Shown one piece after another: positions 20,355-36,769 of a DNA stretch of 64,000 nt (position 1 is its first letter; each line of letters opens with the position of its first letter). Origin of the DNA: Candidatus Latescibacterota bacterium (GTDB lineage Bacteria > Latescibacterota > UBA2968 > UBA8231); the NCBI GenBank assembly GCA_965204725.1, contig OZ242005.1, positions 5,152,001 through 5,216,000 of the forward strand, given 5' to 3'. The translations under genes were made by a program, and so were the position numbers. The notes below the pieces were generated by a model. That model was given only the letters and a program-made list of their open reading frames with translations. It made no database searches and had not been told where the DNA came from.

Positions 20355-20371
20355 GAAAGGCACGTACAGCT

Positions 20372-23300
20372 ATGCCTAAGTTCGCGGTGAGGTGGATGGC
20401 CCTCGGCTGGGTTTTGGCCAGCGCGGCCCCGGCTTGGACCGAGGTCGATTTCGCCGAATTGGCGCATACGACTCCGGTCGAGCGCGTACAGCAGACGATG
20501 GACACTTTTGCTGGCTTGGGGTCTAGAGTGGCTGGCTATCGAGGCGCCGATCAAGCAGCCCAGATCGTGCAGGAGCGCTTCCGCGCAATCGGCCTCGACG
20601 ACATTGCAGTCCACGAATACGATGTGTCGATTCCCGTCGATAAGGGCGGGTTTCTGCAAGTCGTTGGCAGCGACGAACAAGTGCCCATTCACGGCCTCTG
20701 GCCCAACCTCGTCAAGACCTCGACGTTGCCCGAGGGTGGGGTGACCCAGCGCTTGATCGACGCCGGCGCCGGCGAGTACGCAGACATGGACGGCCAACAA
20801 GTCGAAGGGGCCGTGGCCCTGATGGACTTCAACTCGGATGACGCTTGGCTCAATGCCGCGTACCTCGGGGCGCAGGCCATCCTCTTTATCGAGCCGGATT
20901 CCACCGTGTACTTGGAGGGCGAAAAGAAGTTCCTGACCATGCCGCTCGACCTGCCGAGGTTTTGGGTCAATCGCCAAGCTGGTCAGCGCTTGCGCCGCCA
21001 GTTGGCCACCGAGGGCGAGCAAACTCTGCACCTAGAGTACCGCATGGATTGGGAGCGGCGTCCCGCTTGGAACATTCTCGGCTCGATCCCCGGGTACGAT
21101 CCCCTAATGAAAGAGGACGTCATCGTGCTGGAGGCGTACTACGACGCCATGTCGGTCGTGCCGGCCCTCGCCCCGGGTGCCGAGCAGGCCTCCAGCATTA
21201 CGGCGCTGTTGGAACTAGCGCGCTATTTCCGCGCCAACCCGCCGGCGCGCACAATCGTCTTTCTCGCCACCTCGGCCCACCACTTGGGCTTGCGCGGGGT
21301 CGATGATTTCATTCAGCGCTATTTGCGTAAAGAAGATCCCTTTATCGAACACATGCTGGTCAGGCGGGTCGTCGATGCGGCCCTCGCCCAGGACCTGATC
21401 GCCCAAGACGGCATTCACTACGCCATCGGCGAGGACCAATTCACCGGCAAGGAAGCCCTCGTGCGGGGCGTTGCCGAAGGGCGCACCGACTTGGCCGTGC
21501 GCGTTGCCGACGCCGCTCTCGCCGAAGGGCTGCTGGCCCAAGCGGAAGCCACTCCGAGCAGTTCAAGCTGGTGGAAAAAAACAATAGCATGGCTCAGGGG
21601 GCTGCTGAGCCGCGAAGAAGGCGTCCTGCACCTTGCCGACAAGCAATTCAAAGACCGCCGCGAACTGATCGCTCAGCTCGACGCGGACGATGACTTGCGC
21701 TTGGCCCTGTACAAGCGCTGGGCCGATCCCAAAATCGATTCGCTCGCGGTCAAGCTCTTTATCAGCCTCGACCTTTCGTCCCAGACCGACGAGCTCGGGG
21801 TGTGGAACAGCAATACCAGCTTTTACTACAAGCGCTACTTCGCGCCCTTCGGCAAGAACTTTATGGGATATGCGCGCACGATCAGCCGCGAGTTGGGCTA
21901 CCAGCAGCGCGACGTGCTGGTCAATGGCATCAGCCCCGAAGGCGGCATGAGTTGGCAGACCTTTGTACCCGGCGAAATATCGGTCAACAGCGAATTGGTG
22001 TTGGCCACCGGTACGCCGGCGTTGGCCTTTGTCACGGTCAACGACGCCCGCTTCCTCGTCGATACGCCCTTAGACCGCGCCGAGCGCGTCAACCACGCCA
22101 ATCTCGCCAAACAGATCCGAGTCCTCGCCGGCATGTTCGAGATGGCCTTTGAAGACCCCGAGCTTTTCCCAGACTTCAAGATGCGCCTGCGCGACAATCT
22201 GCGCTCGCTCCGCGGCCGCACCATGGTCTTTCCGCGCCGCAGCATCATCCCCGACCTGCCGCGCGCCGACGCCGTGGCCGTGGTGCGCAACGGCAAGAAA
22301 AAGTCGTATAAGGGTGTGCGCGGCGAGTACTATGAAGTCGTCGACGACAAGGGGGCCTTTTTCGTAAATCGGGTGCGGGTCAACAACGTCCAGATCGAGG
22401 GCTACTACATGGACCCGATCACCGGCCGCATCACCTACGCTCCAGACCGCGGCGTGCAAGGCGACGAGAGCTACCCCATGAAGGTCGCCATGGACTGGCG
22501 CGACAAGCAGTGGATGGTCATCCTCTTCCCCTGTGTGCCCTACAACTTCTTCGACATCGTCGATCCGCGCTATCTCACCAAGCTGTCCAACGTGGAGGTC
22601 TTCGACGAGACGAACAGCGCCCCAGTAGAATACGGTTATACCATTGGCGAAGGCCCCTCGGCCCAAAACGAGCCGGTCGGCGTGCTCTTTGCGCGGCCCG
22701 GCTCGCGCATCAAGATGGGATTCGGGGCCGGCCTGCTGGGGTTCCGCTCGCTCCTGCTCAACGCCACCAGCGTAACCGACAAGGAAAAGGCCGAGGGCGA
22801 GGGCTTTGAGATCCGCCCCGGGACTTCCTTTGCCCGCACGACCTTCCAAGCCGCCCAAGACATGTGGAACCTCGACGAGTCGCGGATGCGCGAGCTGCGG
22901 AGCTTTGCCATTGAAAACCAGCGCCTCAACGACCTTCACTATCGGGCCGAGACCGAGTTGGACCAAGCGGCCGCGGCCGGCACCGAGCAGCGCTGGGGCG
23001 ATTTTGTGCGCCACACCCGTGCGGCCTTCGGCTTAGAGTCGCGCGCCTACCCCGACGTCAAATCCACCCAAAACGACGTCATTCAGGGCATCATCTTCTT
23101 CATGGCCCTCGTCATTCCCTGCGCCTTTTTTACCGAGCGGCTCCTGTTTACGGCCGCCACCATTCGCAACCAGATCATCGGGTTTGTCGGGGTTTTTATC
23201 GCGATTTGGAGCGTGTTGTGGATGGTGCATCCGGCCTTTCAGTTGTCCAACCCCTTCGTCATTCTGCTCGCTTTCGTCATCATCGCGCTGGCCGTCCTCG

Positions 23301-25195
23301 TGATGTCGATCATCTCCGGCCGCTTCAACGAGCAGATGAAGAAGCTGCGCACCGAGGTGGCCGTGATCCACGACACGGATGTCAGCCGCTCTTCGGCCTC
23401 GCTCACGGCTTTTCAGCTTGGGATTTCCAATATGAAGCGGCGCAAGACGCGCACGGTCCTCACCTTTACCACGCTCTTGCTGCTGACCTTTACGGTCCTC
23501 TCCTTCACCTCCATCCGCACCGGCCTGCGGTTCAATCAAATCAGCCGCGACAACGAGGGCCTCTACGAGGGCATCCTAATCCGCAGCAAGGCGTGGAATC
23601 CCATGGAGGATTCCGTCCTCGAATACGCGCGCAGCAATTTCGGCGATCGGGCTGCGGTCGCGCCGCGCAGTTGGTACAGCAATAAGGCCAAAGCGCACAT
23701 CAAGATAAAACACGGAGAAAACGCCCATAACGCCCTCGGCGTCTTGGGCCTGACCCCGGAGGAAACCGAGGTCACCGGGCTGGACCAAGCCCTCGTCGCC
23801 GGGCGGTGGTTTGCGCCGGGCGAGGACAAGGTCTGCATCCTGCCCATCGACATGGTCAAGGAGGCCCATCTCGACGTCGATCTGGCCGATGTCGGCCAAG
23901 CGCAGGTCCGCATCTTCGGCGACTTGTTCACGGTGGTTGGCGTCCTCGACTCCAAGCGGATGAAGGACCTCAAAGACCTCGACGACGAAATCCTGACGCC
24001 GGCTGACTTTGCCGTCACCGGCGGCCAAGCCGTGCAGGAAATCGCCGAGGAGGAAAAGCGCGAGAAGCAGGGCTTGGAGGACGCCAAAGTCGTCATCAAG
24101 CCCTTTGTCCATCTGGAGCCAGCCAACATCCTCATCGTGCCCTACCACACGCTGCGCAACGTCGGCAGCGGCAACCCCTTACAGTCTGTGGCCGTGCGCT
24201 TTCCCGCCGGCAGCGACGTGCGCGGTGAGGTCGAGGAATTTCTCTCGCGCCTCGCGGTGACCCTGTTTGCTGGCATCAAGGAGCCGGGCGACGAATACAT
24301 CAAGGTGGCGATTTACTCTTCGCTGGGGCTGACCTCCTTTTCCGGGATGAGCAACTTGTTCATCCCCATGCTGATCGCTTCGCTCATCGTGCTCAATACC
24401 ATGATGGGCAGCGTGTACGAGCGCTTCCGCGAGATTGGCATCTACTCTTCAGTCGGCCTCGCGCCCGGCCATATCTCTTGGCTGTTTATCGCCGAGAGTT
24501 GCGTCTATTCGGTATTGGGCGTCGTCGCTGGTTATCTCAGCGGCCAAGTAATCGCCAAGGTGCTCATTGAGTCCGACCTGCTCGGAGGCTTCACGCTCAA
24601 CTACTCTTCTGTGGCTGCGGTGCTGTCCTGTATGCTGGTGATGGCCGTGGTCATGCTCTCGACGATTTATCCCGCCCGCAAGGCTTCGCAAATGGCCGTG
24701 CCGGACGTGACCCGCAAGTGGAAGCTGCCGCCGCCCGATGGCGACCAGTGGGATTTCGAGTTCCCCTTTACGGTGAGCGGCCACGAAGTCTTGGGCTTGA
24801 GCGTATTCCTCATCGGCTACTTCGATTCCTACAGCGAAGAGTCCATCGGCACCTTCTACACCGACGGTGCTCAGCTGCGCCGCGAAGAGACGCCCAACGG
24901 CGAAGGGTATCTCATCGACATGAATATCTGGCTGGCTCCGTTCGACTTGGGCGTCAGCCAACACGTCACCGTGCGGGCCATGCCCGAGGACGAGCACAAC
25001 ATCTACTCCGTCGGCCTGCAAATCAAGCGACTCAGCGGCGAGGATGCCTCGTGGCGTCGGGTCAACCAACGCTTTATGAACGTCATCCGCAAACAGTTCC
25101 TTATCTGGCGCACGGTGGATGCCGAGGCCAAGGAGAGCTACCGCCAACAGGGCGCGGAAATTCTGCAAGGGCTGCGTAGCGAAGTGTCGGCGTAG
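20372..25195 (+). CDS. Large secreted/membrane protein: PA domain + M28-like domain + FtsX-like permease
   Basis: Signal peptide; LEAYYDAMSVVPALAPGAEQAS..RTIVFLATSAHH; SNMKRRKTRT; NTMMGSVYERFREIGIYSSVGL (FtsX/MacB). Confidence 0.8.
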   Translation: MPKFAVRWMALGWVLASAAPAWTEVDFAELAHTTPVERVQQTMDTFAGLGSRVAGYRGADQAAQIVQERFRAIGLDDIAVHEYDVSIPVDKGGFLQVVGSDEQVPIHGLWPNLVKTSTLPEGGVTQRLIDAGAGEYADMDGQQVEGAVALMDFNSDDAWLNAAYLGAQAILFIEPDSTVYLEGEKKFLTMPLDLPRFWVNRQAGQRLRRQLATEGEQTLHLEYRMDWERRPAWNILGSIPGYDPLMKEDVIVLEAYYDAMSVVPALAPGAEQASSITALLELARYFRANPPARTIVFLATSAHHLGLRGVDDFIQRYLRKEDPFIEHMLVRRVVDAALAQDLIAQDGIHYAIGEDQFTGKEALVRGVAEGRTDLAVRVADAALAEGLLAQAEATPSSSSWWKKTIAWLRGLLSREEGVLHLADKQFKDRRELIAQLDADDDLRLALYKRWADPKIDSLAVKLFISLDLSSQTDELGVWNSNTSFYYKRYFAPFGKNFMGYARTISRELGYQQRDVLVNGISPEGGMSWQTFVPGEISVNSELVLATGTPALAFVTVNDARFLVDTPLDRAERVNHANLAKQIRVLAGMFEMAFEDPELFPDFKMRLRDNLRSLRGRTMVFPRRSIIPDLPRADAVAVVRNGKKKSYKGVRGEYYEVVDDKGAFFVNRVRVNNVQIEGYYMDPITGRITYAPDRGVQGDESYPMKVAMDWRDKQWMVILFPCVPYNFFDIVDPRYLTKLSNVEVFDETNSAPVEYGYTIGEGPSAQNEPVGVLFARPGSRIKMGFGAGLLGFRSLLLNATSVTDKEKAEGEGFEIRPGTSFARTTFQAAQDMWNLDESRMRELRSFAIENQRLNDLHYRAETELDQAAAAGTEQRWGDFVRHTRAAFGLESRAYPDVKSTQNDVIQGIIFFMALVIPCAFFTERLLFTAATIRNQIIGFVGVFIAIWSVLWMVHPAFQLSNPFVILLAFVIIALAVLVMSIISGRFNEQMKKLRTEVAVIHDTDVSRSSASLTAFQLGISNMKRRKTRTVLTFTTLLLLTFTVLSFTSIRTGLRFNQISRDNEGLYEGILIRSKAWNPMEDSVLEYARSNFGDRAAVAPRSWYSNKAKAHIKIKHGENAHNALGVLGLTPEETEVTGLDQALVAGRWFAPGEDKVCILPIDMVKEAHLDVDLADVGQAQVRIFGDLFTVVGVLDSKRMKDLKDLDDEILTPADFAVTGGQAVQEIAEEEKREKQGLEDAKVVIKPFVHLEPANILIVPYHTLRNVGSGNPLQSVAVRFPAGSDVRGEVEEFLSRLAVTLFAGIKEPGDEYIKVAIYSSLGLTSFSGMSNLFIPMLIASLIVLNTMMGSVYERFREIGIYSSVGLAPGHISWLFIAESCVYSVLGVVAGYLSGQVIAKVLIESDLLGGFTLNYSSVAAVLSCMLVMAVVMLSTIYPARKASQMAVPDVTRKWKLPPPDGDQWDFEFPFTVSGHEVLGLSVFLIGYFDSYSEESIGTFYTDGAQLRREETPNGEGYLIDMNIWLAPFDLGVSQHVTVRAMPEDEHNIYSVGLQIKRLSGEDASWRRVNQRFMNVIRKQFLIWRTVDAEAKESYRQQGAEILQGLRSEVSA

Positions 25196-25210
25196 GTGCG
25201 GTCTAAGAGG

Positions 25211-25265
25211 CGTCATTCCCGCGAACGGACGTCACCCCGTGCCCCGACACGGGGCGGGAATCCAG
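25211..25265. repeat. REP-like palindrome with a nested second palindrome
   Basis: CGTCATTCCCGC...GCGGGAATCCAG enclosing GTCACCCCGTG-CCCCGA-CACGGGG. Confidence 0.65.
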
Positions 25266-25565
25266 CCGGTATCGTTTAGACTCAAAGGACGCCCACCAGA
25301 GTTTGCAGACCGCTTCTAAGTAGAAGTTTCCCGTCTCGACCGGCGGCTCGGCGGTAGCGGGTTTGCCTATTCTTTCCAGATCAACGACCAGATGACAGCC
25401 GTCGTGTGGTTCGTTCTGCTCCTTCTTTTTTACTCAAACATAACAAGCGTACCGAGGGGGATGTGGGCGCGTCGTCGGAGGCGTATCGGCCGGTTCGGGG
25501 GATGAGGATTGGCAACTGCGGGCAACGGCTCGCTACCTGCTCTTAGGGAGCGTGGAGGACACAAA

Positions 25566-26408
25566 ATGTGGACGTATCGAGTGGGCATCATTGCGTTGTT
25601 CGTCCTATTGCGGATGGGCGATGCGGATGCGGATGCGGAGCCAGCAGAAATCACGATTCACATCCGTGGACAGTACAAGGCGGAGATTTCGGCTCTGTTG
25701 TTGGCGGCTGATGGGGGGACGACGAGGACTGGGATCGCCGAGTTGGATTCCCTTGCTGCCACATACCGCCTGATGGGGATAGATCATAAGTCTGGCTTTT
25801 ATGGGTATCGGTTTCGGCTGACGTTTCCACCGGGTGCGGATGGGGCCGCCATGGCCGGAGCCTATAGGAACCTATCCTATATACAATCGGTTGAATCGGT
25901 TAGCTCCTTGACGGTGAACGAGAGACACCGCCCTTTCCTTTTGTTTGACATAGAAGACAGGGGACTCCGGTTGCTCGCAAAGGTGGGTGCTGGGACTGTT
26001 TCGGGGCTCGCTCTTACAGCCTTGTCCATACCTTTTCAGGACGGGATAGTTGAGCCATCTGGCGACCCTGACACTGACGCTTGGAGAGGATTAGAATTTC
26101 TTTTAATTGGCACAGCCATCGGCTGTAGTGTCGGATTCCCGTTGGGTGTGAGCTTAGTCGATCCTTATGATTCTTTACCCAAGACTCTACTCGCCGGTGT
26201 TATACCGGGAGCGGTCGGCTTTTCCACCTTGTTACTAAATCAAGAGGCCGCGGGCATAGCGTTCTTGTCTATGTACGTCGTCCCTGTTATTAGTTCACCT
26301 ATTATGTCTGAACTATCGCGCCAGCCTCCTCAAGCCCGCCGCGTCTCCTTCGCTTTATCCCCCACCCTCAACGGCGGCCTCTCCGCCGTAGCCCAACTTC
26401 GCTTTTGA
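25566..26408 (+). CDS. Array paralogue 1 (signal, propeptide-like domain, type A C-module)
   Basis: EITIHIRG..TGIAELDSLAATY..YRFRLTFPPGAD..YIQSV; ends GGLSAVAQLRF. Confidence 0.75.
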   Translation: MWTYRVGIIALFVLLRMGDADADAEPAEITIHIRGQYKAEISALLLAADGGTTRTGIAELDSLAATYRLMGIDHKSGFYGYRFRLTFPPGADGAAMAGAYRNLSYIQSVESVSSLTVNERHRPFLLFDIEDRGLRLLAKVGAGTVSGLALTALSIPFQDGIVEPSGDPDTDAWRGLEFLLIGTAIGCSVGFPLGVSLVDPYDSLPKTLLAGVIPGAVGFSTLLLNQEAAGIAFLSMYVVPVISSPIMSELSRQPPQARRVSFALSPTLNGGLSAVAQLRF

Positions 26409-26435
26409 CCTTGCAACAAGAGAAAGGCTCGCCTC

Positions 26436-27296
26436 ATGTCCCCTATGATCGCTGTACTTACCCTGTTCGCCGCTTTCATGGCAGCGGAGGCCGATGCGAG
26501 AACAGAGCCAGCAGAAATCACGATTCACATTCGCGGCGAGCACAAAGCGGTGATTTCGGCTCTGTTGGCGGCAGTTGACGAGGGGACGACGAGGACCGGG
26601 ATCGCCGAATTGGATTCCCTTGCTGCCACCTACGGCCTGATGGGGATAGAGCGCAAAGGTAGGTCTAGTTTTTATGGGTATCGTTTTCGGCTGACGTTTT
26701 CGCCGGGTGCGGATGGGGCCGCCATTGCCGGAGCATATTGGACCTTAGCCTATATACAATCGGTCGAGCCGGATCCACCACCCGGAGCGAGAGCCCAGAA
26801 GCTGGTCCAGCCGACTCCTACTCTCGGTAATTCCCTAAATAATAGGGCTATTACGCGGATTCCCAAAAAGATAGGCGTAGGTGCGCTGACGACAGTCGGG
26901 GTAGGAATCGCATTATTGCCAGGGGCAGGGACAGCGGGAGATGATGGTATTGGTGCAGGACTTGCCGGGATTACATCACTATTTCTTGGATACCCTCTTG
27001 GCGTGTACTTGGCCGATAGGAAAGAGAGTTCATTCTGGCTGACATTCCTCGGTAGCGGTTTAGGATGGTGGGGGGGTGTTAAAATGTTAGATTCGCCAAA
27101 TTCTAGCACGTTATCAGAGTGGGCTGCTTTGATAACTATACTTGGGGCACCAGTGCTTGCATCGGAGCTATCGCGGAAGGACGCCGTAACAGGAGGCCCC
27201 AAGCGACCCAAGCAATCTCAAGACCTACGGTTTTCTCTCGGTTTGGTGCCGGAGTTCCAAGGAGGCTTGTCGGCTGTCGCCACGCTGCGCTTTTAA
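26436..27296 (+). CDS. Array paralogue 2 (type B C-module)
   Basis: Same N-domain; C-module GYPLGVY..SSFWLT..LGWWGG; ends GGLSAVATLRF. Confidence 0.78.
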   Translation: MSPMIAVLTLFAAFMAAEADARTEPAEITIHIRGEHKAVISALLAAVDEGTTRTGIAELDSLAATYGLMGIERKGRSSFYGYRFRLTFSPGADGAAIAGAYWTLAYIQSVEPDPPPGARAQKLVQPTPTLGNSLNNRAITRIPKKIGVGALTTVGVGIALLPGAGTAGDDGIGAGLAGITSLFLGYPLGVYLADRKESSFWLTFLGSGLGWWGGVKMLDSPNSSTLSEWAALITILGAPVLASELSRKDAVTGGPKRPKQSQDLRFSLGLVPEFQGGLSAVATLRF

Positions 27297-28294
27297 TCCC
27301 TCAATGACGGGAGGATACGCTTTATGCCGCTTATGATCGTTGCTACCCTGTTCGCCATACTCATGGTAGAGGAGGCCGAGGCAGAGACGAAGCCAGCAGA
27401 AATCACGATCCACATCCGTGGAGAGCACAAGGCGGTGATTTCGGCTCTGTTGGCGGCGGTTGACGAGGGGACGACGAGGACCGGGATCGCCGAGTTGGAT
27501 TCCTTGGCGGCCATCTATGGCCTGAGGGATATATCACAAGTCCCTTTTTTTAGGTATCGGTTTCGGCTGACGTTTCCGCCGGATGCGGATGGGGCCGCCA
27601 TGGCCGGAGCATATTGGAACTTAGCCTATATACAATCGGTCGAGCCGGATCCACCACCCGAGGCATGGGAGACATCCTCTCAAAGACCGGCAGGTCAAGA
27701 GACTACAAGTACGACGGCAGTGAAAAAACAAGGCTCTAGCTTTTTGAGAGGCTCTTTAAGAGTGGTAAAAAAGGTGGCCTCCGGTACGATAGTTGGGATC
27801 GTATTCTCTGGGATCGTACTCGGAGGGTCGAGATCTGCAGGGGGAGATTCTGGTATTGGTGCCGCGGCGGCCGGGTATGCCGCCTTCGGTCTCGGATACC
27901 CTATTGGCGTGTACGCAGTCGATGCGAGAGAGAGTTCGTTCTGGCTTACACTCATAGGTGGCGGTTTAGGATGGTGGGGGGCTGCTACATTATCAGAGCG
28001 GGCCGCTTGGGTGACTTTTTTTGGGGCACCAGTGCTTGCATCGGAGCTATCGCGGAAGGACGCCGTAACAGGAGGCCCCAAGCAACCCAAGCAATCTCAA
28101 GACCTACGGTTTTCTCTCGGTTTGGTGCCGGAGTTCCAAGGAGGCTTGTCGGCTGTCGCCACGCTGCGCTTTTAATCCCTCAATGACGGGAGGATACGCT
28201 TTATGCCGCTTATGATCGTTGCTACCCTGTTCGCCATACTCATGGTAAAGGAGGCCGATGCAGAGACGAAGCCAGCAGAAATCACGATCCACAT
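27142..28294 (+). repeat. Near-identical ~274-bp direct repeat (27142-27415 and 28021-28294)
   Basis: Covers gene 3' end, 27-nt spacer and next gene's 5' end; about 3 mismatches by eye; offset 879 bp. Confidence 0.85.
27324..28175 (+). CDS. Array paralogue 3 (type B C-module)
   Basis: Same architecture; tail nearly identical to paralogue 2. Confidence 0.78.
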   Translation: MPLMIVATLFAILMVEEAEAETKPAEITIHIRGEHKAVISALLAAVDEGTTRTGIAELDSLAAIYGLRDISQVPFFRYRFRLTFPPDADGAAMAGAYWNLAYIQSVEPDPPPEAWETSSQRPAGQETTSTTAVKKQGSSFLRGSLRVVKKVASGTIVGIVFSGIVLGGSRSAGGDSGIGAAAAGYAAFGLGYPIGVYAVDARESSFWLTLIGGGLGWWGAATLSERAAWVTFFGAPVLASELSRKDAVTGGPKQPKQSQDLRFSLGLVPEFQGGLSAVATLRF

Positions 28295-29033
28295 TCGCGG
28301 CGAACACAAAGCGGTGATTTCGGCTCTGTTGGCGGCTGTTGACGAGGAGACGACGAGGACCGGGATCGCCGAATTGGATTCTGTTGCTGCCACCTACGGC
28401 CTGATGGGGATAGATCGCAAGGGTCGATCCTCTGGCTTTTATGGGTATCGGTTTCAACTGACGTTTCCGCCGGATTCGGATAGGGCCGCCATTGCCGGAG
28501 CCTATTGGACCTTACCCTATATACAATCGACTGACCCGGAGCCACCCCCCGAGGCGCGAGCCCGGAAGATGCACCGTCCTTTTAACATAGAAAACAGGGG
28601 ACTACGGTTGCTCGCAAAGGTGGCCGCTGGAACTGGTTTGGGGATCGTTGTTACAGCCATGACCTTGGATATTCAGGCCGCGATACATGAGCCATCTGGC
28701 AACATTGACTTATTAAACTCTCTTGTAACGGGCACAGCCATCGGCTGGAGTGTCGGCTTCCCGTTGGGTGTGAGCTTAGTCGATCCTTATGATGCTTTAC
28801 CCAAGACTCTACTCGCCGGTGTTATACCGGGAGCGGTCGGCTTTTCCTACTTGTTACTAAATCAAGACAACGCGGGCATAGAAGCGTTCTTTTTTCTGTA
28901 CGTCGCCCCTTCTATTGGTTCATTGATCGTGTCAGAGAAGTCGCGCCAGCCTCCTCAAGCCCGTCGCGTCTCCTTCGCTTTATCCCCCACCCTCAACGGC
29001 GGCTTCTCCGCTGTAGCCCAACTTCGCTTTTGA
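28203..29033 (+). CDS. Array paralogue 4 (type A C-module)
   Basis: NIENRGLRLLAKVAAGT..FPLGVSLVDPYD; ends AVAQLRF. Confidence 0.78.
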   Translation: MPLMIVATLFAILMVKEADAETKPAEITIHIRGEHKAVISALLAAVDEETTRTGIAELDSVAATYGLMGIDRKGRSSGFYGYRFQLTFPPDSDRAAIAGAYWTLPYIQSTDPEPPPEARARKMHRPFNIENRGLRLLAKVAAGTGLGIVVTAMTLDIQAAIHEPSGNIDLLNSLVTGTAIGWSVGFPLGVSLVDPYDALPKTLLAGVIPGAVGFSYLLLNQDNAGIEAFFFLYVAPSIGSLIVSEKSRQPPQARRVSFALSPTLNGGFSAVAQLRF

Positions 29034-29075
29034 CCCTGCACTGAGAGAAAGGCTTGAAACAGAAAGGACTGTGAC

Positions 29076-29750
29076 ATGGGCTTTATTTTGCTGGTCTTAT
29101 GGCTACTGCTCGCCCTTTGGGAGCCGGTGGCGGCTCGGACGATTCGGGTATCAGAAAAGGAATCAGAACACGGGGAACTGGCCTTATATATGGCCCTGTT
29201 AGAGGCGGCTCCTCACGATACGCTGCTCGTCGCCGCCGGGTATTACGAAGGGGTTGGTATTGACAAACCCCTGACGCTCATTGGGGCCGGAGCCGATAGC
29301 ACAATAGTGGCAGGTCCCTATACGGCAATCGGGATAGGAGCCGAAGGGGTAACTATTGAAGGATTTTATGTACAGGGCTTTGGGAAATGCCGTCTGACGA
29401 GTGCTATTTATTGTAATAACTGTTCCGCAACGCTCAAGCACAACATTCTCGAAGGATGTTACTCGGTGATTACTACCGATGGTAATGCTCGACTAACCGT
29501 CAACTACAACCACCTAATAGCAGGAACCTTCGCCTTTGACATTTTCCCCTCGGACGATCCGAGTGCTATTGACGCTCGCTTCAACTGGTGGGAGACGACG
29601 GTTGAACAGGAGATACAGGCCAAGATATCCGCGACGATGGACGAGGTGGTGTATCGGCCTTGGCTGCAAGGTCCCGAGGAAATCTTCCGTGATCTTCCTA
29701 CCTTTATATCCCCGATCAGTTGGGGTCGGTTGAAACAGAAAGGACGATGA
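29076..29750 (+). CDS. Secreted pectin-lyase-like beta-helix protein
   Basis: Signal peptide; DTLLVAAGYYE..IDKPLTLIGAG; DARFNWW; C-terminal SWGRLK. Confidence 0.7.
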   Translation: MGFILLVLWLLLALWEPVAARTIRVSEKESEHGELALYMALLEAAPHDTLLVAAGYYEGVGIDKPLTLIGAGADSTIVAGPYTAIGIGAEGVTIEGFYVQGFGKCRLTSAIYCNNCSATLKHNILEGCYSVITTDGNARLTVNYNHLIAGTFAFDIFPSDDPSAIDARFNWWETTVEQEIQAKISATMDEVVYRPWLQGPEEIFRDLPTFISPISWGRLKQKGR

Positions 29751-29751
29751 C

Positions 29752-31101
29752 ATGCGCTTTATCTTGCTACTCTTTCTGTTGGGAGTTGGCTCTGCGGCTG
29801 GCGACGCCAGCGAGCCGGTTCCCTCGCCGCCCTACTGGACGGGTCGGATCGAACAGGACACGACGTGGCGCGACACGGTATATGTCGGCGGCGACGTGAC
29901 GATTGCAGCAGCGGCGACCCTGACGCTGGCTCCCAATACGCAGGTTCTCTTTCTGCCCTACCACGATGCGACCCGAAGCGGCTTGGACTCGACCCGTGCG
30001 GAACTGACCGTCGAAGGGCGGCTGGCGGCGCAAGCAGGCGGCATCGTCTTTCGTTCAGCGGATGCGGGTTCGTTGGGAGCCGATTGGCATGGCCTTGTCG
30101 TCGAGCGAGGTGGGCGAGCGGACGTATCCAACGCTGCGATACGCGATGGCTTGCGCTGTCTGTATGCCAAGCGGGGTGGGCGCGTCAGGATGGACGCTAT
30201 CGCCTTTGCCAACTGCGGCAAGCCGACCGCACCAGCGGATGCGGCCAAGCTGGCGACGCCGGCGGGAACATGGCGAAAAGAAGAGCTTGGGCTGTTCCAT
30301 CCACGCGAAACAAAAATCACACCCCCGATGAACCAACCATTCGAGAGACAAGAGATCACGATTCATATCAGTGGAGAGCACAAGGCGGTGATTTCGGCTT
30401 TGTCGGCGGCTGTTGACGAGGAGACGACGGTTACGGGGATCGCCGAGTTGGATTCTCTTGCTGCCATCTATGGCCTGATGGGGATATATCGTACGGGTCG
30501 ATCCTCTAACGTTGATGATGGGTCTCGGTTTCGGCTGACGTTTCCGCCGGGTGCGGAGGTGGCCGCCATTGCCGAAGCCTATTTGAACCTATCTTATATA
30601 CAATCGGTAGGGAACGAGAGGCACCGCCCTTTTGACATAGAAAACAGGGGACTACGATTACTCACAAAGGTGGCCGCTGGGACTGCTTCGGGGGCCGCTC
30701 TTACAGCCATGACCACGAGTGCTCTGGGCGCAATAGATGAACCATCTGACGACCATAACAATAATCCTTATGGAGGATTAGACTTTTTCATATTTGGCGC
30801 AGCCATCGGCAGTACGGTCGGATTCCCAATTGGTGTGAGCTTAGTTGATCCTTACGATTCTTTCGTCGCGACACTCATGGGCGGTGTTATGACTGGAGGG
30901 GGTGGTTTAGCCTTGGTAGGAGCTGGGAGGGGCTCATGGCTCTCGGTTATAGGGGGAGCGGTGGCCTTATGCGGCCCTTTTATTGGTTCACTCAGTGCGT
31001 CAGAGAAGTCGCGCCAGCCTCCTCAAGACCGCCGGATCTCCTTCGCTTTATCCCCGACCCTCAACGGCGGCCTCTCCGCCGTTACCACGTTGCGCTTTTG
31101 A
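29752..31101 (+). CDS. Array paralogue 5 with an extra N-terminal beta-helix-like segment
   Basis: GRIEQDTTW..GDVTI..LTLAPNTQV..LTVEGRL..DWHGL, then the shared domain and type A module. Confidence 0.75.
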   Translation: MRFILLLFLLGVGSAAGDASEPVPSPPYWTGRIEQDTTWRDTVYVGGDVTIAAAATLTLAPNTQVLFLPYHDATRSGLDSTRAELTVEGRLAAQAGGIVFRSADAGSLGADWHGLVVERGGRADVSNAAIRDGLRCLYAKRGGRVRMDAIAFANCGKPTAPADAAKLATPAGTWRKEELGLFHPRETKITPPMNQPFERQEITIHISGEHKAVISALSAAVDEETTVTGIAELDSLAAIYGLMGIYRTGRSSNVDDGSRFRLTFPPGAEVAAIAEAYLNLSYIQSVGNERHRPFDIENRGLRLLTKVAAGTASGAALTAMTTSALGAIDEPSDDHNNNPYGGLDFFIFGAAIGSTVGFPIGVSLVDPYDSFVATLMGGVMTGGGGLALVGAGRGSWLSVIGGAVALCGPFIGSLSASEKSRQPPQDRRISFALSPTLNGGLSAVTTLRF

Positions 31102-31177
31102 CCCTGCAACAAGAAGAAAGGCCCCGCCCCATGTTCCTTCGGCTCTGTCGGCGGCGGTTGACGCGGAGACGATAGGT

Positions 31178-31203
31178 GGCCCTTTGCCGGAGGGCTTTTT
31201 TTA
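31178..31203 (+). terminator. Intrinsic terminator
   Basis: GCCCT-TTGCCGG-AGGGC followed by a T-run. Confidence 0.65.
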
Positions 31204-31266
31204 GCATATTAAGGAGCATGGTGCGGCTCCTGCTTATACCACTGTCCAGCTTGGGAGGCGTCAAAA

Positions 31267-31809
31267 ATGGACTGGAATAATCCTCTTATCTACATAGTTC
31301 CCGGACTAGCTGTCCTTGGATGGATCATCCGTTTGGAAAGATGGATGGGTAAGAAAGACGAGTCTATACGCCTCATAGAAGAGAATATCGTGAAATTAGA
31401 AGCAGCTATCCGTGAAATAAGGACGGATATTAAGGAATTGTTCAGAAATGGCCCTGGGGCGGTTACTGCACAAAATAGCCCGCTCCGCTTAACTGAGCGG
31501 GGAGAGGCTATCTCTGAGGTGTTGGGAGCAAAGGCGTGGGCAACGCGGACGGCGCAGGACGTATCACCTAAGCTGAAGGGGAGCCACCCCTATGATATTC
31601 AAATGTTCTGTATGGACTACGTGGACCAAACTTCCAATTTTACCCGCGAGTTTATTGACCAGATTAAGACGTACTCGTATGAGAAAGCTGTGCCGATGAG
31701 CCAAATTAAGGACGTGATGGCGGTAGAATTGCGCGATGCGATCCTGACAGCTATTGCCCGATTAAAGCCGGATGAAGCGTCAGCGTCCCGCCGATATGAA
31801 CCAACTTAG
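31267..31809 (+). CDS. Hypothetical membrane-anchored coiled-coil protein (AT-richer)
   Basis: N-terminal TM, coiled coil, SPLRLTERGE motif; GGAGG SD. Confidence 0.65.
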   Translation: MDWNNPLIYIVPGLAVLGWIIRLERWMGKKDESIRLIEENIVKLEAAIREIRTDIKELFRNGPGAVTAQNSPLRLTERGEAISEVLGAKAWATRTAQDVSPKLKGSHPYDIQMFCMDYVDQTSNFTREFIDQIKTYSYEKAVPMSQIKDVMAVELRDAILTAIARLKPDEASASRRYEPT

Positions 31810-31824
31810 GTAAAATCCCCTACC

Positions 31825-32880
31825 ATGATACCCCATAGGCTGCCTATCATCGTCTGGTTCGTCTTGGTCTTGCTGGCGGGTCGTGCGGTAGATGGGAAGG
31901 CAGAGACGCTGCCGAGAAATACGGCTCAAGCCATCGACCATACCTACGACACGCGCCTGTACTGGATGGGTCAGATCGAGCAGGACACGACGTGGCGCGA
32001 CACCGCGCCAGCGGATGCGGCCAAGCCGGCGACGCCGGCGGGAACGGAGCGAAAAGAAGACCTTGAACTGTCCCAGCAACGCGAAACAAAAATCACACCC
32101 CCGATGAACCAACCATTTGAGATACAAGAGATCACGATTTATGGCGGGCACAAGGAGGTGGTTTTGGTGCTGTTAGAGGCGGTTGACGAAGGGACGCCGG
32201 TTACCGGAATCGCCGGGTTGGATTCTCTGGCTGCCACCTATGGCTTGATTGGGATATATCGTACGGGTCGAAGGTCCTCTGGTCTTTATGGATACCGTTT
32301 TGGGCTGACGTTTCCGCCGGGTGCGGATGTGGCCGCCATTGCCAAAGCATATAGGAACCTATCCTACATACAATCTATCAAATCGGGGGACTCCTTAACG
32401 ATGAAAGGGATGCGTCCTTCTTTCAATATAGAAAACGGGGGACTACGGTTACTCGCAAAGGTGGCCGCTGGGACTGGTTCGGGGATGGCTGTTACAGCCC
32501 TAGCCGTGGGTGTTCTGGACCAGATATATGATCCTCTAAGTGACCCTGACGCTAACGCTGATAGAGGATTGGGCTTTCTTTTGGCTGGTGCAGCCATCGG
32601 CTGTAGTGTCGGATTCCCGTTCGGTGTGAGCTCAATCGATCCTTATGATTCTTTACCCAAGACGCTACTCGCCGGTGTTATACCGGGAGCGGTCGGCTTT
32701 TCCGCTTTGCTACAAGCAGACGTGGGCATAGGGTTCTTGTTTGCGTACGTCGTCCCTGTTATTAGTTCACCTATTATGTCTGAACTATCGCGCCAGCTTC
32801 CTCAAGACCGCCGGATCTCCTTCGCTTTATCCCCGACCCTCAACGGCGGCCTCTCCGCCGTTACCATGTTGCGCTTTTGA
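31825..32880 (+). CDS. Array paralogue 6 (internal deletion relative to paralogue 5)
   Basis: EQDTTWRDT joined directly to APADAAK; type A module ending AVTMLRF. Confidence 0.75.
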   Translation: MIPHRLPIIVWFVLVLLAGRAVDGKAETLPRNTAQAIDHTYDTRLYWMGQIEQDTTWRDTAPADAAKPATPAGTERKEDLELSQQRETKITPPMNQPFEIQEITIYGGHKEVVLVLLEAVDEGTPVTGIAGLDSLAATYGLIGIYRTGRRSSGLYGYRFGLTFPPGADVAAIAKAYRNLSYIQSIKSGDSLTMKGMRPSFNIENGGLRLLAKVAAGTGSGMAVTALAVGVLDQIYDPLSDPDANADRGLGFLLAGAAIGCSVGFPFGVSSIDPYDSLPKTLLAGVIPGAVGFSALLQADVGIGFLFAYVVPVISSPIMSELSRQLPQDRRISFALSPTLNGGLSAVTMLRF

Positions 32881-32998
32881 CCTTGCAACAAGAGAAAGCT
32901 CCCCTATGTCCATCCTTAATGTCTCTATTTACATGGAAAAACTGGACAACTAACGCGATGGGGATGCAAATGACGCCTTTCGTCAGGAGGATTGTCTA

Positions 32999-33919
32999 AT
33001 GCGATCGTTCGTTTTTTATGTTATTGGCTTATTGGGAAGTGTCGTTATCGCTCCGGCCGTCTGTCTAGCCGAAGATTCCAACCGGTTTTCTTTCCCGCTT
33101 CCCTTGTCTCTGGCAGTTGGCGACCATTGGACCTATTCCATTGTGAAAACCCATTTGAGGTATGAAGATGATTTGAAGTTTGTAGGTAGGATCCTTGATA
33201 CGCTATCCACTGAAACTCTGACCATTCGTGTGGTAGAGTCCCTTCAGATAGAGGATCGGACCTATTTTGCGTTGAGTGACGGAGGCTTATACCGCGTAGA
33301 TGAGGAAAAGAGAACTTGGCGGTATGATACTGAGGCTGAGAGCGAGAAGGTCGTCTGGGATATATGGGGACCACTGGAATACAAAACCATCGAGTTTCCC
33401 CTTCCCGGATTGAGTCAGCTAGAACCCGCTATAGAAAGACCAGTGATCGATGAATATGCATGCGAGTACGCATGTTTTTCAAGACATGGCCCATTTGTAT
33501 GGCGCCCAGATCCTGAGTATGAGGAGGGCTATGCTTGGATTTCTACTATTGAGGTAGGTACCGTTCGACACGATTCCTATCTCGGGTACTTTATTTATGT
33601 GCCCTTTGTATGGAGTTATGACGACCTCATCAAGCTCCCAGACTGGGGTATAACCGAACTTTATGTGTTTCAGGACACACCGTATGGGACTGAGTACGTA
33701 CCGAAGGAGACTCTTGTTGTAGCACCCAACGTTGGTGTCGTTTATCATGCGTCTTTCAGCTATACCTATAATTTGACCCTTTCCCCTTCAGAGACAAAAA
33801 AAACGGAATGGGTCTTACAGGACATGCAGAAAGGCCATCCAGAAAGTACTGTTGTAGAGGATATATCCTTTGGTGCGCTAAAGCAGCGGATGACACGATC
33901 CACCTCAAAGGCTCCGTGA
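32999..33919 (+). CDS. Secreted hypothetical protein
   Basis: Signal peptide; PLSLAVGDHWTY; C-terminal ISFGALK; AT-richer than the backbone. Confidence 0.65.
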   Translation: MRSFVFYVIGLLGSVVIAPAVCLAEDSNRFSFPLPLSLAVGDHWTYSIVKTHLRYEDDLKFVGRILDTLSTETLTIRVVESLQIEDRTYFALSDGGLYRVDEEKRTWRYDTEAESEKVVWDIWGPLEYKTIEFPLPGLSQLEPAIERPVIDEYACEYACFSRHGPFVWRPDPEYEEGYAWISTIEVGTVRHDSYLGYFIYVPFVWSYDDLIKLPDWGITELYVFQDTPYGTEYVPKETLVVAPNVGVVYHASFSYTYNLTLSPSETKKTEWVLQDMQKGHPESTVVEDISFGALKQRMTRSTSKAP

Positions 33920-34354
33920 GTTCCTCCATAAGCAATCGCCGTAGGACTGCCTGCTTTAGCTGGCCGGTGGATAGGCGCGTCCCCGTGTTCAACCACGGGG
34001 AGGCTTTGAGCGAAAGGCGGACATTTCGTATGCTTTCCCTTGCCGTGTCGCTCTTTGACAAGAGAAGAGGTAGGCGGTTCCAACCCCGAATCGCCGCAGG
34101 CGGGTTCAACGCTGATGGCGACCGGACCCGCCGATTACGGGCCTGCGGTGGCGGTGGTTCACCCGCCGCTTCCCGGCCTCGCCACGCAAGCCATGATCCC
34201 AGCACCCCCTGAGCATCTGCAATCTGTCCGGGCAGCGGTGCTCGCGAAGGCAGAATCCCTGCGGGCCGGATCGCGTCCCGTGGTGTGGGTGGTATGCCGC
34301 TGGCGTCTGAGTTATATTTATACCGCCCAAGCAAAAAGCGGAGGTCCATAGCGA

Positions 34355-36769
34355 ATGCTCGGAAGAAAAAATAGAAACCCGAACCAAGAGATCGAAGAGT
34401 ATCGGGATTTAATGCAGGTCCCGGACCGCTTTGAGAACGGCTTTACGATCAAGGCCGTCCTCGGCGTCCTCTTCGTCTCCTTTATCATGGTGCCGGGCAA
34501 TATGTACCTGAGCCTGATGATCGGCGGCTCTTTGGGGGCGGCAGCCGAGTGGGTGACCATCATCCTCTTCGCCGAAATCACCAAGCGCTCCTTTTCCTCC
34601 CTGCGCCGCCAAGAAGTCTATGTGCTGTTCTACGTGGCCGCCTCCCTGATCGCCGCCGAGACCGGCGCCTTTGAGGGCTTGCTCTACAACCAGTACTTGG
34701 TGCAATCGCCAGCCGCCAAGCAGTTCGGCATCACCAAGCTGATTCCCACGTGGGTGGCACCGCAGCCCGACTCCCTCGCCATCATCGAGCGCACCTTCCT
34801 GCACTCGGATTGGGCGATGCCCATCGTCCTCCTCGTCTTGGGGATGATCATCTCGCGCGTCAACTGGTTCACCATGTCATACGCGCTCTTCCGGCTTAGC
34901 TCCGACTACGAGCGCCTGCCCTTCCCCTTCGCGCCCGTCAACGCGCAAGGCGCTACGGCACTGGCCGAGACCACCCAAGGAGTTGAGACGTGGCGCTGGC
35001 GAGTGTTCTCGGCCGGGGCGATGATTGGCTTGGTCTTTGGCACGATCTACGTGGCCCTGCCGGCCATTACCGGCGCACTGCTGACCGAGCCGATCCAACT
35101 CATCCCCATCCCCTTTGTTGATTTCACCCAAGTCACCGGCAACTTCATCCCCGCTACGCCGCTCGGATTTACCGCCCACTTGGGGCCGATCTTCACCGGG
35201 CTGGTGGTGCCGTTCTGGGGCGTGGTCGGCACCTTTATCGGCGTGGTCGTCGCCTCGATTGCCAATCCGCTGCTCTATACTTGGACGCCGCCGTGGCGCG
35301 AGGAGCCGTACCTGAACTTGTGGCAGCAAGGCATGGGCACGGTCGAGACCTTCTTCGTCAACAACGTCGATTTCTGGATGAGCTTTGGCATTGGCACCAC
35401 CGTCGCCATCGCCATCATCGGCATCTATCAGGTCATTCAGAGCATCCGCGGGGCGAGGGCCAACGCCAGTGACGACAGCCCCCGCAGCTTTGCCACCCCC
35501 GCCGGCCGCGGCGATTTCCCAATATGGCTGGCACTGGCGCTATACGCCTTGGCCACGGCCGGCCTAATCGGCATCGCCGCTTGGCTGCTGCCGGGCATTG
35601 CCCAATTTATATGGTTCTTCCTCTTTTTTGGCTTCGTCTTCACGCCCTTTCAGTCCTTTGTCAACGCCCGCCTAGTCGGGATGGTCGGGCAGACGGTGGA
35701 TATTCCCTTTGTGCGCGAGGCGACGATCATCCTCTCAGGGTATCGCGGCGTTGACATCTGGTTCATTCCGTTTCCCTTGGGCAACTACGGCGCCCAGACC
35801 ATGAAGTTCCGCGAAATTGAGCTGACCGGCACTCAGTTCACCAGCATCATCCGCGCCGAGGTGTTCATGGTGCCCATCGTGCTCTTCACCAGCTTTCTCT
35901 ACGGCTCCTATATATGGAAACTGGCGCCAATTCCGTCGGCCTCCTACCCCTATGCCCAGCTAATCTGGCGGCTGCGCGCCTACCAGCAATGCCTCTTTAT
36001 CACCGGCACCATGCGCAGCGAACTGGCCATAGACAAGGACCGGGCGGGATGGACGCCGGCCAACCTAATCGAGAACGAGTGGTGGTACTGGCGAGTGCGG
36101 CTGGTGGATCAGGAGTGGCTGGACTCCAACGGCAAGCGCGGCCAAGTCGGCCCGTGGATGCCGACCCAAGTGTTCTACTCGTACTTCGATCCGGGAGCAC
36201 CCGACATTGTTTCCGAGCGCTACCTGCGCGACGCGCAGCAAGCCGAAGAGGAAATTGTCGCGGGCCTGCCGGCCATTGCCCCGCTGGGGCCGGCCATGGA
36301 CACCATCATCCGCGACCCCCGCCCGACCCTCGAAGTGCAGGTCGAGCGAGCCGTGCCGGCGGGATGGTCTTTTTACTTTGAGGTCGATACCGATCCGCTC
36401 TTTACCAGCTCTTGGATCCAGCGATCCACCGACGTGCCTTGGCTCTTTAGGGCGCTGAAAACCGAGGTCATCGCCTTTGGGGCCGGCTTCGGGCTGGTGA
36501 GCTTTGTTCTGCTGTCCATTCTCGGGCTGCCGATCTTGCTGATCTTTGGCTTCGTGCGCTCGCTGACGTCGCTGCCGCATTTCGTGGTGACCGAGATCAT
36601 CGGCGCATTCTTGGCCCGCTACTACTTCTGGAACAAGTACGGGCGGCAAGAGTGGCGGCAGTTTGCCCCCATTCTGGCGGTGGGCTTTTCCTGCGGCATG
36701 GCGTTGATGGGCATGGCGTCGGTGGGGATCGCCCTGATCCAGAAATCGGTCTCCGTGCTGATTTTCTAG
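34355..36769 (+). CDS. OPT-like peptide transporter with a soluble insertion
   Basis: Many TM segments; AAEWVTIILF, ERLPFPFAPV; soluble insert around 36010-36440. Confidence 0.72.
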   Translation: MLGRKNRNPNQEIEEYRDLMQVPDRFENGFTIKAVLGVLFVSFIMVPGNMYLSLMIGGSLGAAAEWVTIILFAEITKRSFSSLRRQEVYVLFYVAASLIAAETGAFEGLLYNQYLVQSPAAKQFGITKLIPTWVAPQPDSLAIIERTFLHSDWAMPIVLLVLGMIISRVNWFTMSYALFRLSSDYERLPFPFAPVNAQGATALAETTQGVETWRWRVFSAGAMIGLVFGTIYVALPAITGALLTEPIQLIPIPFVDFTQVTGNFIPATPLGFTAHLGPIFTGLVVPFWGVVGTFIGVVVASIANPLLYTWTPPWREEPYLNLWQQGMGTVETFFVNNVDFWMSFGIGTTVAIAIIGIYQVIQSIRGARANASDDSPRSFATPAGRGDFPIWLALALYALATAGLIGIAAWLLPGIAQFIWFFLFFGFVFTPFQSFVNARLVGMVGQTVDIPFVREATIILSGYRGVDIWFIPFPLGNYGAQTMKFREIELTGTQFTSIIRAEVFMVPIVLFTSFLYGSYIWKLAPIPSASYPYAQLIWRLRAYQQCLFITGTMRSELAIDKDRAGWTPANLIENEWWYWRVRLVDQEWLDSNGKRGQVGPWMPTQVFYSYFDPGAPDIVSERYLRDAQQAEEEIVAGLPAIAPLGPAMDTIIRDPRPTLEVQVERAVPAGWSFYFEVDTDPLFTSSWIQRSTDVPWLFRALKTEVIAFGAGFGLVSFVLLSILGLPILLIFGFVRSLTSLPHFVVTEIIGAFLARYYFWNKYGRQEWRQFAPILAVGFSCGMALMGMASVGIALIQKSVSVLIF

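Follow-up and report, generated by a model that had tools for sequence, protein, structure and literature searches.

Tandem proteins joining a subtilase-prodomain-like domain to a predicted membrane module in Latescibacterota

What purpose could be served by a domain resembling the prodomain of a secreted protease when it is encoded, without the protease, six times at one locus? The question is raised by the genome of Candidatus Latescibacterota bacterium (GCA_965204725.1; 5.43 Mb, completeness 94%, contamination 10%), in a stretch of 64,000 nucleotides of contig OZ242005.1 (positions 5,152,001-5,216,000, forward strand), which we term the window and whose own numbering is used below. Between 25566 and 32880 it holds six paralogous open reading frames (ORFs) on the plus strand, which are 45-69% identical to the first of them in a six-way alignment. 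All six share a common plan: a hydrophobic leader ending in A-x-A; an N-terminal domain of about 90 residues (the N-domain); a variable linker; and a C-terminal module (the C-module) composed of four Gly-rich hydrophobic segments with variable loops and a tail ending in LRF. A preliminary description of this DNA had reported the six genes, the 27-nt spacing of the first four, and the common leader, conserved domain, Gly-rich segments, variable loops and LRF tail; the ORF list and the alignment agree with it on the genes and their spacing, and each of the shared parts is present in all six.

The reading that we favour, with a probability of roughly 40%, is that the six proteins are envelope-tethered carriers of a prodomain-derived, putative subtilase-binding domain on a diversifying anchor. 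They belong to a Latescibacterota-restricted family of modular proteins that are predicted to be exported and membrane-anchored. In such a protein the N-domain would dock on a subtilase-type catalytic domain and hold or inhibit the protease, as prodomain-derived proteins do, acting while tethered to the cell envelope via the C-module; the tethered domain would protect the envelope or control a secreted protease. The conserved turn, basic segment and tail of the C-module would share the N-domain's side of the membrane, and its hypervariable loops would face the opposite one.

The N-domain and its relation to subtilase prodomains

Among 1.84 billion representatives, no more than 74 proteins match an N-domain profile of 25 sequences at E≤1e-3. 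Pfam was run on 25 of these 74 and divides them into 19 short proteins and six giant Ig/cadherin-repeat proteins, the latter of which we take to be biased hits. Six of the 19 short proteins match PF22148, the family of the fervidolysin-type prodomain, at E≤0.01, and three reach its 21-bit cut-off (P0154, 40.2 bits; P0156, 31.8 bits; P0168, 21.1 bits). As the template for a direct comparison with hhalign we used 13 PF22148 domains from other Latescibacterota; all five of the members checked consist of PF22148 followed by Peptidase_S8. The narrow N-domain profile aligns with these prodomains at 81.7% (E 1.1e-5), and the profile that includes distant relatives at 96.4% (E 1.2e-9), over 81 columns and template positions 2-87 of 88.

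With a deeper alignment, AlphaFold2 models the N-domain at a predicted local distance difference test score (pLDDT) of 91.9 and a predicted template-modelling score of 0.84, in the order β-α-α-β-β-α-β (strand 5-13, helices 17-29 and 37-46, strands 48-57 and 61-70, helix 74-82, strand 87-92). The topology is that of the prodomain sandwich plus an extra helix of about 15 residues that canonical prodomains lack; the C-terminal strand-helix-strand motif of the prodomains (YRL..p.aD...A..aY...P.V.yaeP) is kept. Judged by its sequence profiles, the N-domain is a true but remote relative of the fervidolysin-type S8 N-terminal prodomain. The earlier suggestion of kinship with S8 prodomains is upheld in this form by hhalign and by the modelled topology, though not by Foldseek, which does not single out prodomains.

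Several observations weigh against this relationship, or against a role derived from it. None of the six proteins reaches the PF22148 gathering score, and none matches any Pfam family at E≤1. Foldseek with the N-domain model returns no row at E≤1e-3 (best E 4.9e-3); it ranks ACT, ribosomal S6 and NikR domains equal to chains of 91-95 residues of the Aspergillus fumigatus alkaline protease (19-22% identity), which, judging by their length, we take to be the propeptide. The best VIA-align Z-score, 8.2, is likewise to NikR. The fold is generic, and the structure searches cannot separate a prodomain from other ferredoxin-like domains: the fold agrees, and the case for homology rests on the sequence profiles. 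As to function, the surroundings of all three loci of the family in the window's genome are free of subtilase genes, the canonical PF22148 domain is absent from that genome, and its eight S8 ORFs have N-terminal segments of their own, judged by eye. The N-domain is also the most conserved part of the proteins, although the matching of diverse proteases would predict its diversification.

The comparison of the N-domain with sequence profiles of PDB entries gave no significant match (best E 0.097, Bacteroidales TssD). A scan of the whole genome for PF22148 gave 0 matches at E≤0.01, and Peptidase_S8 is absent from the six proteins; the 13 Peptidase_S8 matches of the genome, which fall in the eight ORFs mentioned, all lie outside the window. 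These results, with the empty Pfam searches, are in keeping with the absence of a protease noted in the preliminary description. A 'split' prodomain that serves the genome's own subtilases is rejected, because by eye these have their own N-terminal segments.

A link to proteases is seen only further afield. Of six loci returned by a metagenome scan, five contain distant protease-less relatives of the N-domain. In three of these five, the next downstream gene has a canonical PF22148 domain, joined to Peptidase_S8 in L099 and L101; in L102 the gene is truncated where the contig ends. The remaining two contigs end inside a second tandem relative. In the three loci (L099 733-6146, L101 and L102) the prodomain-like proteins have sorting domains of the type IX secretion system (T9SS) and lie, singly or two in tandem, directly upstream of the gene for a large subtilase. 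Nothing but this gene order, which comes from relatives and not from the window's family, hints at a functional partnership of this branch of the superfamily with subtilases. As a separate observation on distribution, canonical PF22148 prodomains are found in 23/29 and 7/13 genomes of two other Latescibacterota families and in 1/40 genomes of the window's family, from which (genera g1 and g10) the full-length matches with both N-domain and C-module mainly come.

The same features bear on an alternative that we consider quite unlikely: that the N-domain is a ferredoxin-like binding module, descended from a prodomain and no longer protease-related, that binds a glycan, peptidoglycan or an envelope protein, with the family acting as envelope scaffolds for interchangeable passengers. 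The generic fold found by Foldseek and VIA-align, the extra helix, the lack of a nearby subtilase in the window's genome and the unrelated passengers borne by the C-module (see below) would all suit such a module. The tight gene-order link with subtilases that the distant protease-less relatives keep, and the retained C-terminal strand-helix-strand motif, count against it.

Turnover of the array and exchange of passengers

The gaps between paralogues 1-4 (26409-26435, 27297-27323 and 28176-28202) are each 27 nt long; the second and third are identical across the aligned stretch, and both contain GGAGGA. Further along, the array is broken up by three unrelated ORFs (Table 1). Copies 5 and 6 have N-terminal extensions: that of copy 5 is also present in other family members, and copy 6 is a copy-5-like gene from which the β-helix part has been deleted in frame (repeats D10 and D11).

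Table 1. Features of the paralogue array and its interleaved ORFs (window numbering; domain limits of paralogue 1 from hidden Markov model (HMM) matches)
Feature	Position	Strand	Remarks
Paralogue 1	25566..26408	+	280 aa from ATG; a TTG at 25509 is also in frame
Paralogue 1, domains	N-domain 25629-25901; type-A membrane module and tail 25944-26405		HMM matches
Paralogue 2	26436..27296	+	286 aa; copy used for folding
Paralogue 2, domains	N-domain 26496-26774; type-B membrane module and tail 26832-27293		
Paralogue 3	27324..28175	+	283 aa; N-domain 27381-27650; type-B module 27735-28172
Paralogue 4	28203..29033	+	276 aa; N-domain 28260-28541; type-A module 28581-29030
Interleaved exported β-helix protein, NosD-like repeats	29076..29750	+	224 aa; ends SWGRLKQKGR
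Paralogue 5	29752..31101	+	449 aa; β-helix N-extension of ~190 aa; N-domain 30334-30627; type-A module 30631-31098
Terminator-like hairpin 3' of paralogue 5	31178..31196	+	8-bp stem, then T7; weak
Interleaved ORF, function unknown	31267..31809	+	180 aa; N-terminal hydrophobic segment
Paralogue 6	31825..32880	+	351 aa; N-extension remnant; N-domain 32101-32394; type-A module 32422-32877
Exported ORF, unknown family, at end of low-GC island	32999..33919	+	306 aa

The six N-domains are 65-89% identical to one another, and the C-modules fall into two old types, A (copies 1, 4, 5 and 6) and B (copies 2 and 3), which are 31-41% identical between types. Copies 3 and 4 have a 92%-identical leader on different module types, and a 300-nt tract (27108-27407 versus 27987-28286) is 96% identical and spans gene junctions; the modules have been shuffled by recombination. 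The ratio of nonsynonymous to synonymous substitution rates (dN/dS), by the Nei-Gojobori method, is 0.29-0.58 for the N-domain, 0.18-0.41 for the tail and 0.73-1.83 for the helix/loop region in same-type pairs, the top value being that of copies 1 and 4 (dN 0.20, dS 0.11). The N-domain and the tail are therefore under purifying selection, and the helix/loop part evolves at a dN/dS of about 1 or above. The diversification claimed for the family in the preliminary description accordingly holds for the helix/loop region and fails for the conserved N-domain and tail. Over all pairs, dS in the N-domain is 0.2-0.66, whereas in the C-module it is saturated between types; hence the N-domain has either been homogenised or been transferred in recent times to anchors that are old.

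Between flanks that are conserved, the locus forms a hypervariable island of low GC. GC content is 0.505-0.55 over 26-34 kb (0.505 in 32001-34000) against about 0.59-0.63 around it. In a syntenic locus of a related metagenome-assembled genome (MAG), L017, the flanking proteins are 91-98% identical, and between them are five differently built members, three of them without an N-domain, and a different unrelated ORF. Contigs from four public runs cover the flanks yet join paralogues over other distances, including 4687 nt between copy 1 and copy 5 and 6491 nt between copy 1 and copy 6. From L017 and these contigs it follows that the array is structurally polymorphic in nature.

The 29076-29750 ORF stops one base ahead of the start of paralogue 5; its product matches NCBIfam TIGR04247 (E 8.9e-12, 44.3 bits, far below the cut-off of 300) and has an 80%-identical counterpart in L017. 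The 31267-31809 ORF has only sub-threshold GapR-like matches in Pfam and no counterpart in L017 or the related loci, and the 32999-33919 ORF has no Pfam match and no counterpart in L017. The hairpin downstream of paralogue 5 is weak, since the total of such sites in the promoter and terminator scan equals the shuffle expectation.

On the left of the island lies a 1668-residue protein in which an M28 peptidase, a MacB periplasmic core domain and an FtsX permease are fused (20189-25195; 97% identical in L017), and its conserved right flank is an 804-residue polytopic membrane protein without a Pfam or NCBIfam match (34355-36769; 98% identical in L017). A functional tie between the array and these genes was considered and set aside: they flank the array here and in L017, but the neighbours at the genome's two other family loci are unrelated to them, and we therefore claim no functional link. 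Between the M28-FtsX gene and paralogue 1, at 25200-25270, is a palindromic element of about 55-60 nt that resembles repetitive extragenic palindromes (GTCATTCCCGC...GCGGGAATC). It has 68 blastn-short matches in the genome and is marked by depth spikes of about 10- to 30-fold in metagenome contigs; a further copy lies directly upstream of a family member at C1:1796538-1797323.

The family profile finds 11 members at three loci in the window's genome. In a public protein collection, copy 2 matches 166 protein clusters at E≤1e-3; all are devoid of Pfam domains, and 'hypothetical protein [Candidatus Latescibacteria bacterium]' is the sole source name among them. When one genome per species was scanned, 14 loci came up, every one with a title naming a Latescibacterota or Latescibacteria MAG. 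The phylum survey, which supplies the copy numbers in related MAGs envisaged in the preliminary description, found matches at E≤1e-5 in 52/168 Latescibacterota genomes (17/30 in the window's genus), with from 1 to at least 14 matches per genome. The C-module was found only in Latescibacterota. The metagenome runs that hold part of the window are labelled sponge or marine metagenome, and the bacterium, which is uncultured, is probably sponge-associated.

Two features escaped the preliminary description: the C-module is an independent, portable unit that also bears other passengers, and the N-domain occurs elsewhere with other C-terminal tags. By HMM, the window's genome has the N-domain in 9 ORFs and the C-module in 11; among the 120 homologues listed, 93 have both, 20 the C-module only and 7 the N-domain only, and in more distant Latescibacterota most matches of the phylum survey are confined to the C-module. 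The passengers found on the C-module include: a β-helix domain (YWTGRIEQDTTWRD...), as in copy 5; an SH3-like repeat of about 70 residues (GVVLEAGEIDS...RIQ.L.L), in one or two copies; acidic repeats; and, in one case, an HEIGH metalloprotease-like (HExxH) segment, with a match to Peptidase_M10 (E 0.0058) that is under the cut-off. Conversely, N-domains elsewhere are followed by a single very hydrophobic C-terminal transmembrane segment, T9SS sorting domains, a dockerin or a short SWGxIK tail, endings that favour an extracytoplasmic place for the domain. The different distributions of the two modules and the variety of passengers therefore make the family best seen as a conserved C-terminal module that carries exported passengers which can be exchanged. 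Among candidates of 484-2000 residues there were no longer proteins with a C-module, which is weak evidence.

Loci with other passengers on the C-module include L075 107-1342, L083, L088 and L085, all from other Latescibacterota. At a second family locus of the window's genome (L026 297-3791 and 5724-6890; C1:3762001-3781000) the neighbours are unlike those in the window and comprise a 1164-residue nSTAND-type NTPase, an alginate-export-like outer-membrane protein, a Cache-domain protein and a T9SS substrate. The SWGxIK ending looks like an undescribed C-terminal tag. In the window's genome, 54 ORFs of at least 100 residues have [STN]W[GSA]x[IVLM]K within the final 30 residues, for the most part as TSVE..SWGxIK shortly ahead of the stop codon, as against only 2 ORFs in a control window from -80 to -50. 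Many of the tagged ORFs are paralogues of about 320 residues with a weak CBM9-like match, and one is a WD40 protein; L091-L098 are among the loci concerned. The 29076-29750 ORF carries a tag of this SWG type, distant relatives of the N-domain end likewise, and no NCBIfam model matches it.

Paralogues arrayed in tandem within a hypervariable island of lower GC, patchily distributed within one genus and diverging in the membrane helices themselves, also recall immunity islands, and small four-helix membrane proteins could in principle diversify as a defence against the membrane-targeting toxins of competitors. We regard this as very unlikely: Pfam and NCBIfam scans, which did not include PADLOC or toxin libraries, found no toxin, Rhs, contact-dependent inhibition, type VI secretion or bacteriocin gene beside any of the three loci, and immunity proteins are not normally bearers of exported passenger domains.

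The C-terminal membrane module and its topology

The AlphaFold2 model of full-length paralogue 2 has four helices in the C-module (130-164, 172-193, 200-219 and 225-252; pLDDT 80-92), followed by a low-confidence hairpin (268-273/277-282); with the shallow alignment used, its N-domain and tail stay below a pLDDT of 50. Foldseek with this full-length model found nothing at E≤1e-3. Across 49 diverse C-modules, invariant or near-invariant residues open helix 1 (R9, K13 and G17), close helix 2 (G59, G63, V64 and D68, in G.P.GVS.VDP.D) and follow helix 4 (S118, E119 and R122); the tail is conserved as R.S.GL.P...G.LSAVATLRF, with an invariant terminal F. All these conserved residues are on the side of the N-domain, and loops 1-2 and 3-4, on the opposite side, vary most and have the most insertions and deletions: entropy is 2.5 in the loops versus 0.8 in the N-domain and 0.9 in the tail (0.8-1.2 over the N-domain, the helix 2-3 turn and the tail). 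In the helices, hydropathy is no more than moderate, with Kyte-Doolittle means over 19 residues of 1.2-1.9. Hydrophobicity follows a helical period in helices 1 and 3 (85-100 degrees) and a β period in the tail (180 degrees); helix 2 has a β-like periodicity, and its GxxxG run also alternates.

Pfam, NCBIfam and the PDB sequences give no match to the C-module (best E against PDB 0.26), and NCBIfam none to the five paralogues submitted, a set without copy 3; these searches bear out the view that the family is undescribed. The nearest approach is to PF05433, the glycine zipper 2TM family, which is touched by 3/49 C-modules at E≤1 (best E 2.7e-5, 23.4 bits against a cut-off of 24.2), by none of the six window proteins and by nothing in the genome at E≤0.1. 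In Pfam, neither the six proteins nor the 49 C-modules match an outer-membrane protein family or a T9SS sorting domain (Por_Secre_tail, CHU_C or FlgD_ig). The best ESM Atlas score, 0.77, is to Myxococcota hypothetical proteins, one cluster of which has Gly-zipper_YMGG on 21% of its members; we treat this as a lead only.

The tail had been read in the preliminary description as a BamA-type β-signal that anchors the proteins in the outer membrane. For this the signs are mixed: the tail is β-periodic and ends in Phe, yet the body of the module is predicted to be helical, and of the genome's 21 TonB-receptor or Omp85 ORFs 10 end in F and 0 have R/K at position -2. The tail was also considered as a general sorting signal and rejected, because its profile finds 10/11 family members in the genome and no other ORF better than E 0.26.

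If the proteins sat in the inner membrane with the N-domain in the periplasm, the charges would be troublesome: positive charges lie on the N-domain side (R141, K145 and, following helix 4, the basic stretch), which runs against the positive-inside rule and counts against the tethered arrangement that we favour. Together with the moderate hydrophobicity, they speak against a textbook inner-membrane topology. The leaders lack Cys and hence a lipobox, and no known route to the outer membrane would suit helices that have no lipid anchor.

These properties bring in the main rival to the favoured reading, a variable outer-membrane coat, which we hold to be unlikely. In it, the helices would form a glycine-zipper-like anchor, the hairpin ending in Phe would be a targeting or assembly signal, and loops 1-2 and 3-4 would be the working end at the surface, varying under pressure from phage, host or competitors, with the N-domain as a conserved periplasmic adaptor. 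Such a coat would accommodate the placement of all variable, indel-rich parts opposite the N-domain, helix 2-3 turn and tail, the helix/loop dN/dS of up to 1.83, the moderate hydropathy, the brushes with PF05433, the 180-degree periodicity of the tail with its terminal F (an ending also found in 10/21 of the genome's outer-membrane protein ORFs) and the differences in copy number and structure among metagenome contigs. It fits poorly with the leaders, since the known glycine-zipper outer-membrane proteins are typically lipoproteins and no route is known by which helical non-lipoproteins reach the outer membrane. PF05433 is, moreover, sub-threshold where it appears, missing from 46/49 modules and absent from the genome, no outer-membrane protein ORF has R/K at -2, and the N-domain variant with a single very hydrophobic C-terminal segment is typical of inner-membrane anchoring.

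The hairpin has also suggested an oligomeric pore, in which the hairpins of several subunits would form a β-barrel and the helices a periplasmic or membrane collar. Its amphipathic character, β periodicity and invariant terminal Phe are what such a barrel would need; the tail is short, with two strands of 8-9 residues, nothing positive supports assembly, and the passengers resemble displayed cargo more than channel parts, all of which makes the idea highly improbable. A multimer prediction with four copies of residues 130-286 (interface score ipSAE 0.01 and 0.03) is evidence neither way. A composite picture, which we find distinctly doubtful, would have the C-module as a helical, glycine-zipper-like outer-membrane anchor, delivered or assembled via a β-signal-like hairpin, with its hypervariable tip on the surface and a prodomain-derived protease trap or other passenger beneath, the arrays serving recombination-driven surface variation in sponge-associated Latescibacterota.

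Comparison with known systems

The N-domain and the PF22148 prodomain are alike in profile (96.4%, E 1.2e-9, with intermediates), in strand and helix order bar one helix, and in the C-terminal β-α-β motif. They differ in that no catalytic domain follows the N-domain, which is joined instead to a linker and a membrane module, in its extra helix, and in that the Pfam model misses it; in the window's genome, the N-domain of the array family is the only representative of the PF22148 superfamily. We found no paper on PF22148 or on the fervidolysin N-terminal prodomain.

Inhibitors of the MEROPS I9 kind offer the closest functional parallel: in both, a prodomain-derived domain is encoded apart from the protease, and the metagenome relatives of the N-domain are encoded next to a subtilase. 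Unlike the proteins described here, which have a predicted four-helix anchor and occur in arrays, the known I9 inhibitors are soluble and their inhibition has been measured. The yeast and fungal I9 inhibitors are examples of stand-alone inhibitors. Another is the SUB1 propeptide-like protein of Plasmodium, a stand-alone propeptide-like subtilase inhibitor (PMC6993865). A literature search on propeptide-like, membrane-anchored subtilase inhibitors yielded, among the papers listed, only eukaryotic or soluble cases.

The C-module has in common with the glycine-zipper 2TM outer-membrane lipoproteins of PF05433 (Rick_17kDa_Anti), of the SlyB/Pcp kind, its Gly-rich helix pairs with GxxxG spacing and the weak matches described. 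It is set apart from them by the sub-cut-off scores, the lack of a lipobox, four helices in place of two and the added conserved β-hairpin tail. The architecture recalls that of autotransporters and T9SS proteins, in which the N-terminal passenger can be exchanged while a C-terminal module that directs localisation, and ends in an aromatic residue, is conserved; with T9SS proteins the likeness extends to the same passengers, which are joined to T9SS domains in relatives. Here, in contrast, no β-barrel or T9SS domain is detected and the module is predicted to be helical. The module departs likewise from BAM-dependent barrels, having a body modelled as four helices and no transmembrane β-barrel domain.

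If the N-domain indeed traps subtilases, the family would represent membrane-bound control of proteases in a phylum that is uncultured and has secreted proteases in abundance; if the anchor indeed resides in the outer membrane, it would define a class of outer-membrane proteins that are neither barrels nor lipoproteins, and a new case of locus-level surface variation. Prodomain-derived, protease-less inhibitors have so far been known as soluble, mainly eukaryotic proteins. What is new here is a protease-less propeptide-like protein on an undescribed membrane module, in recombining arrays: the same domain, predicted to be envelope-tethered, present in several copies and interchanged with other passengers on an anchor without relatives in Pfam, NCBIfam or the PDB.

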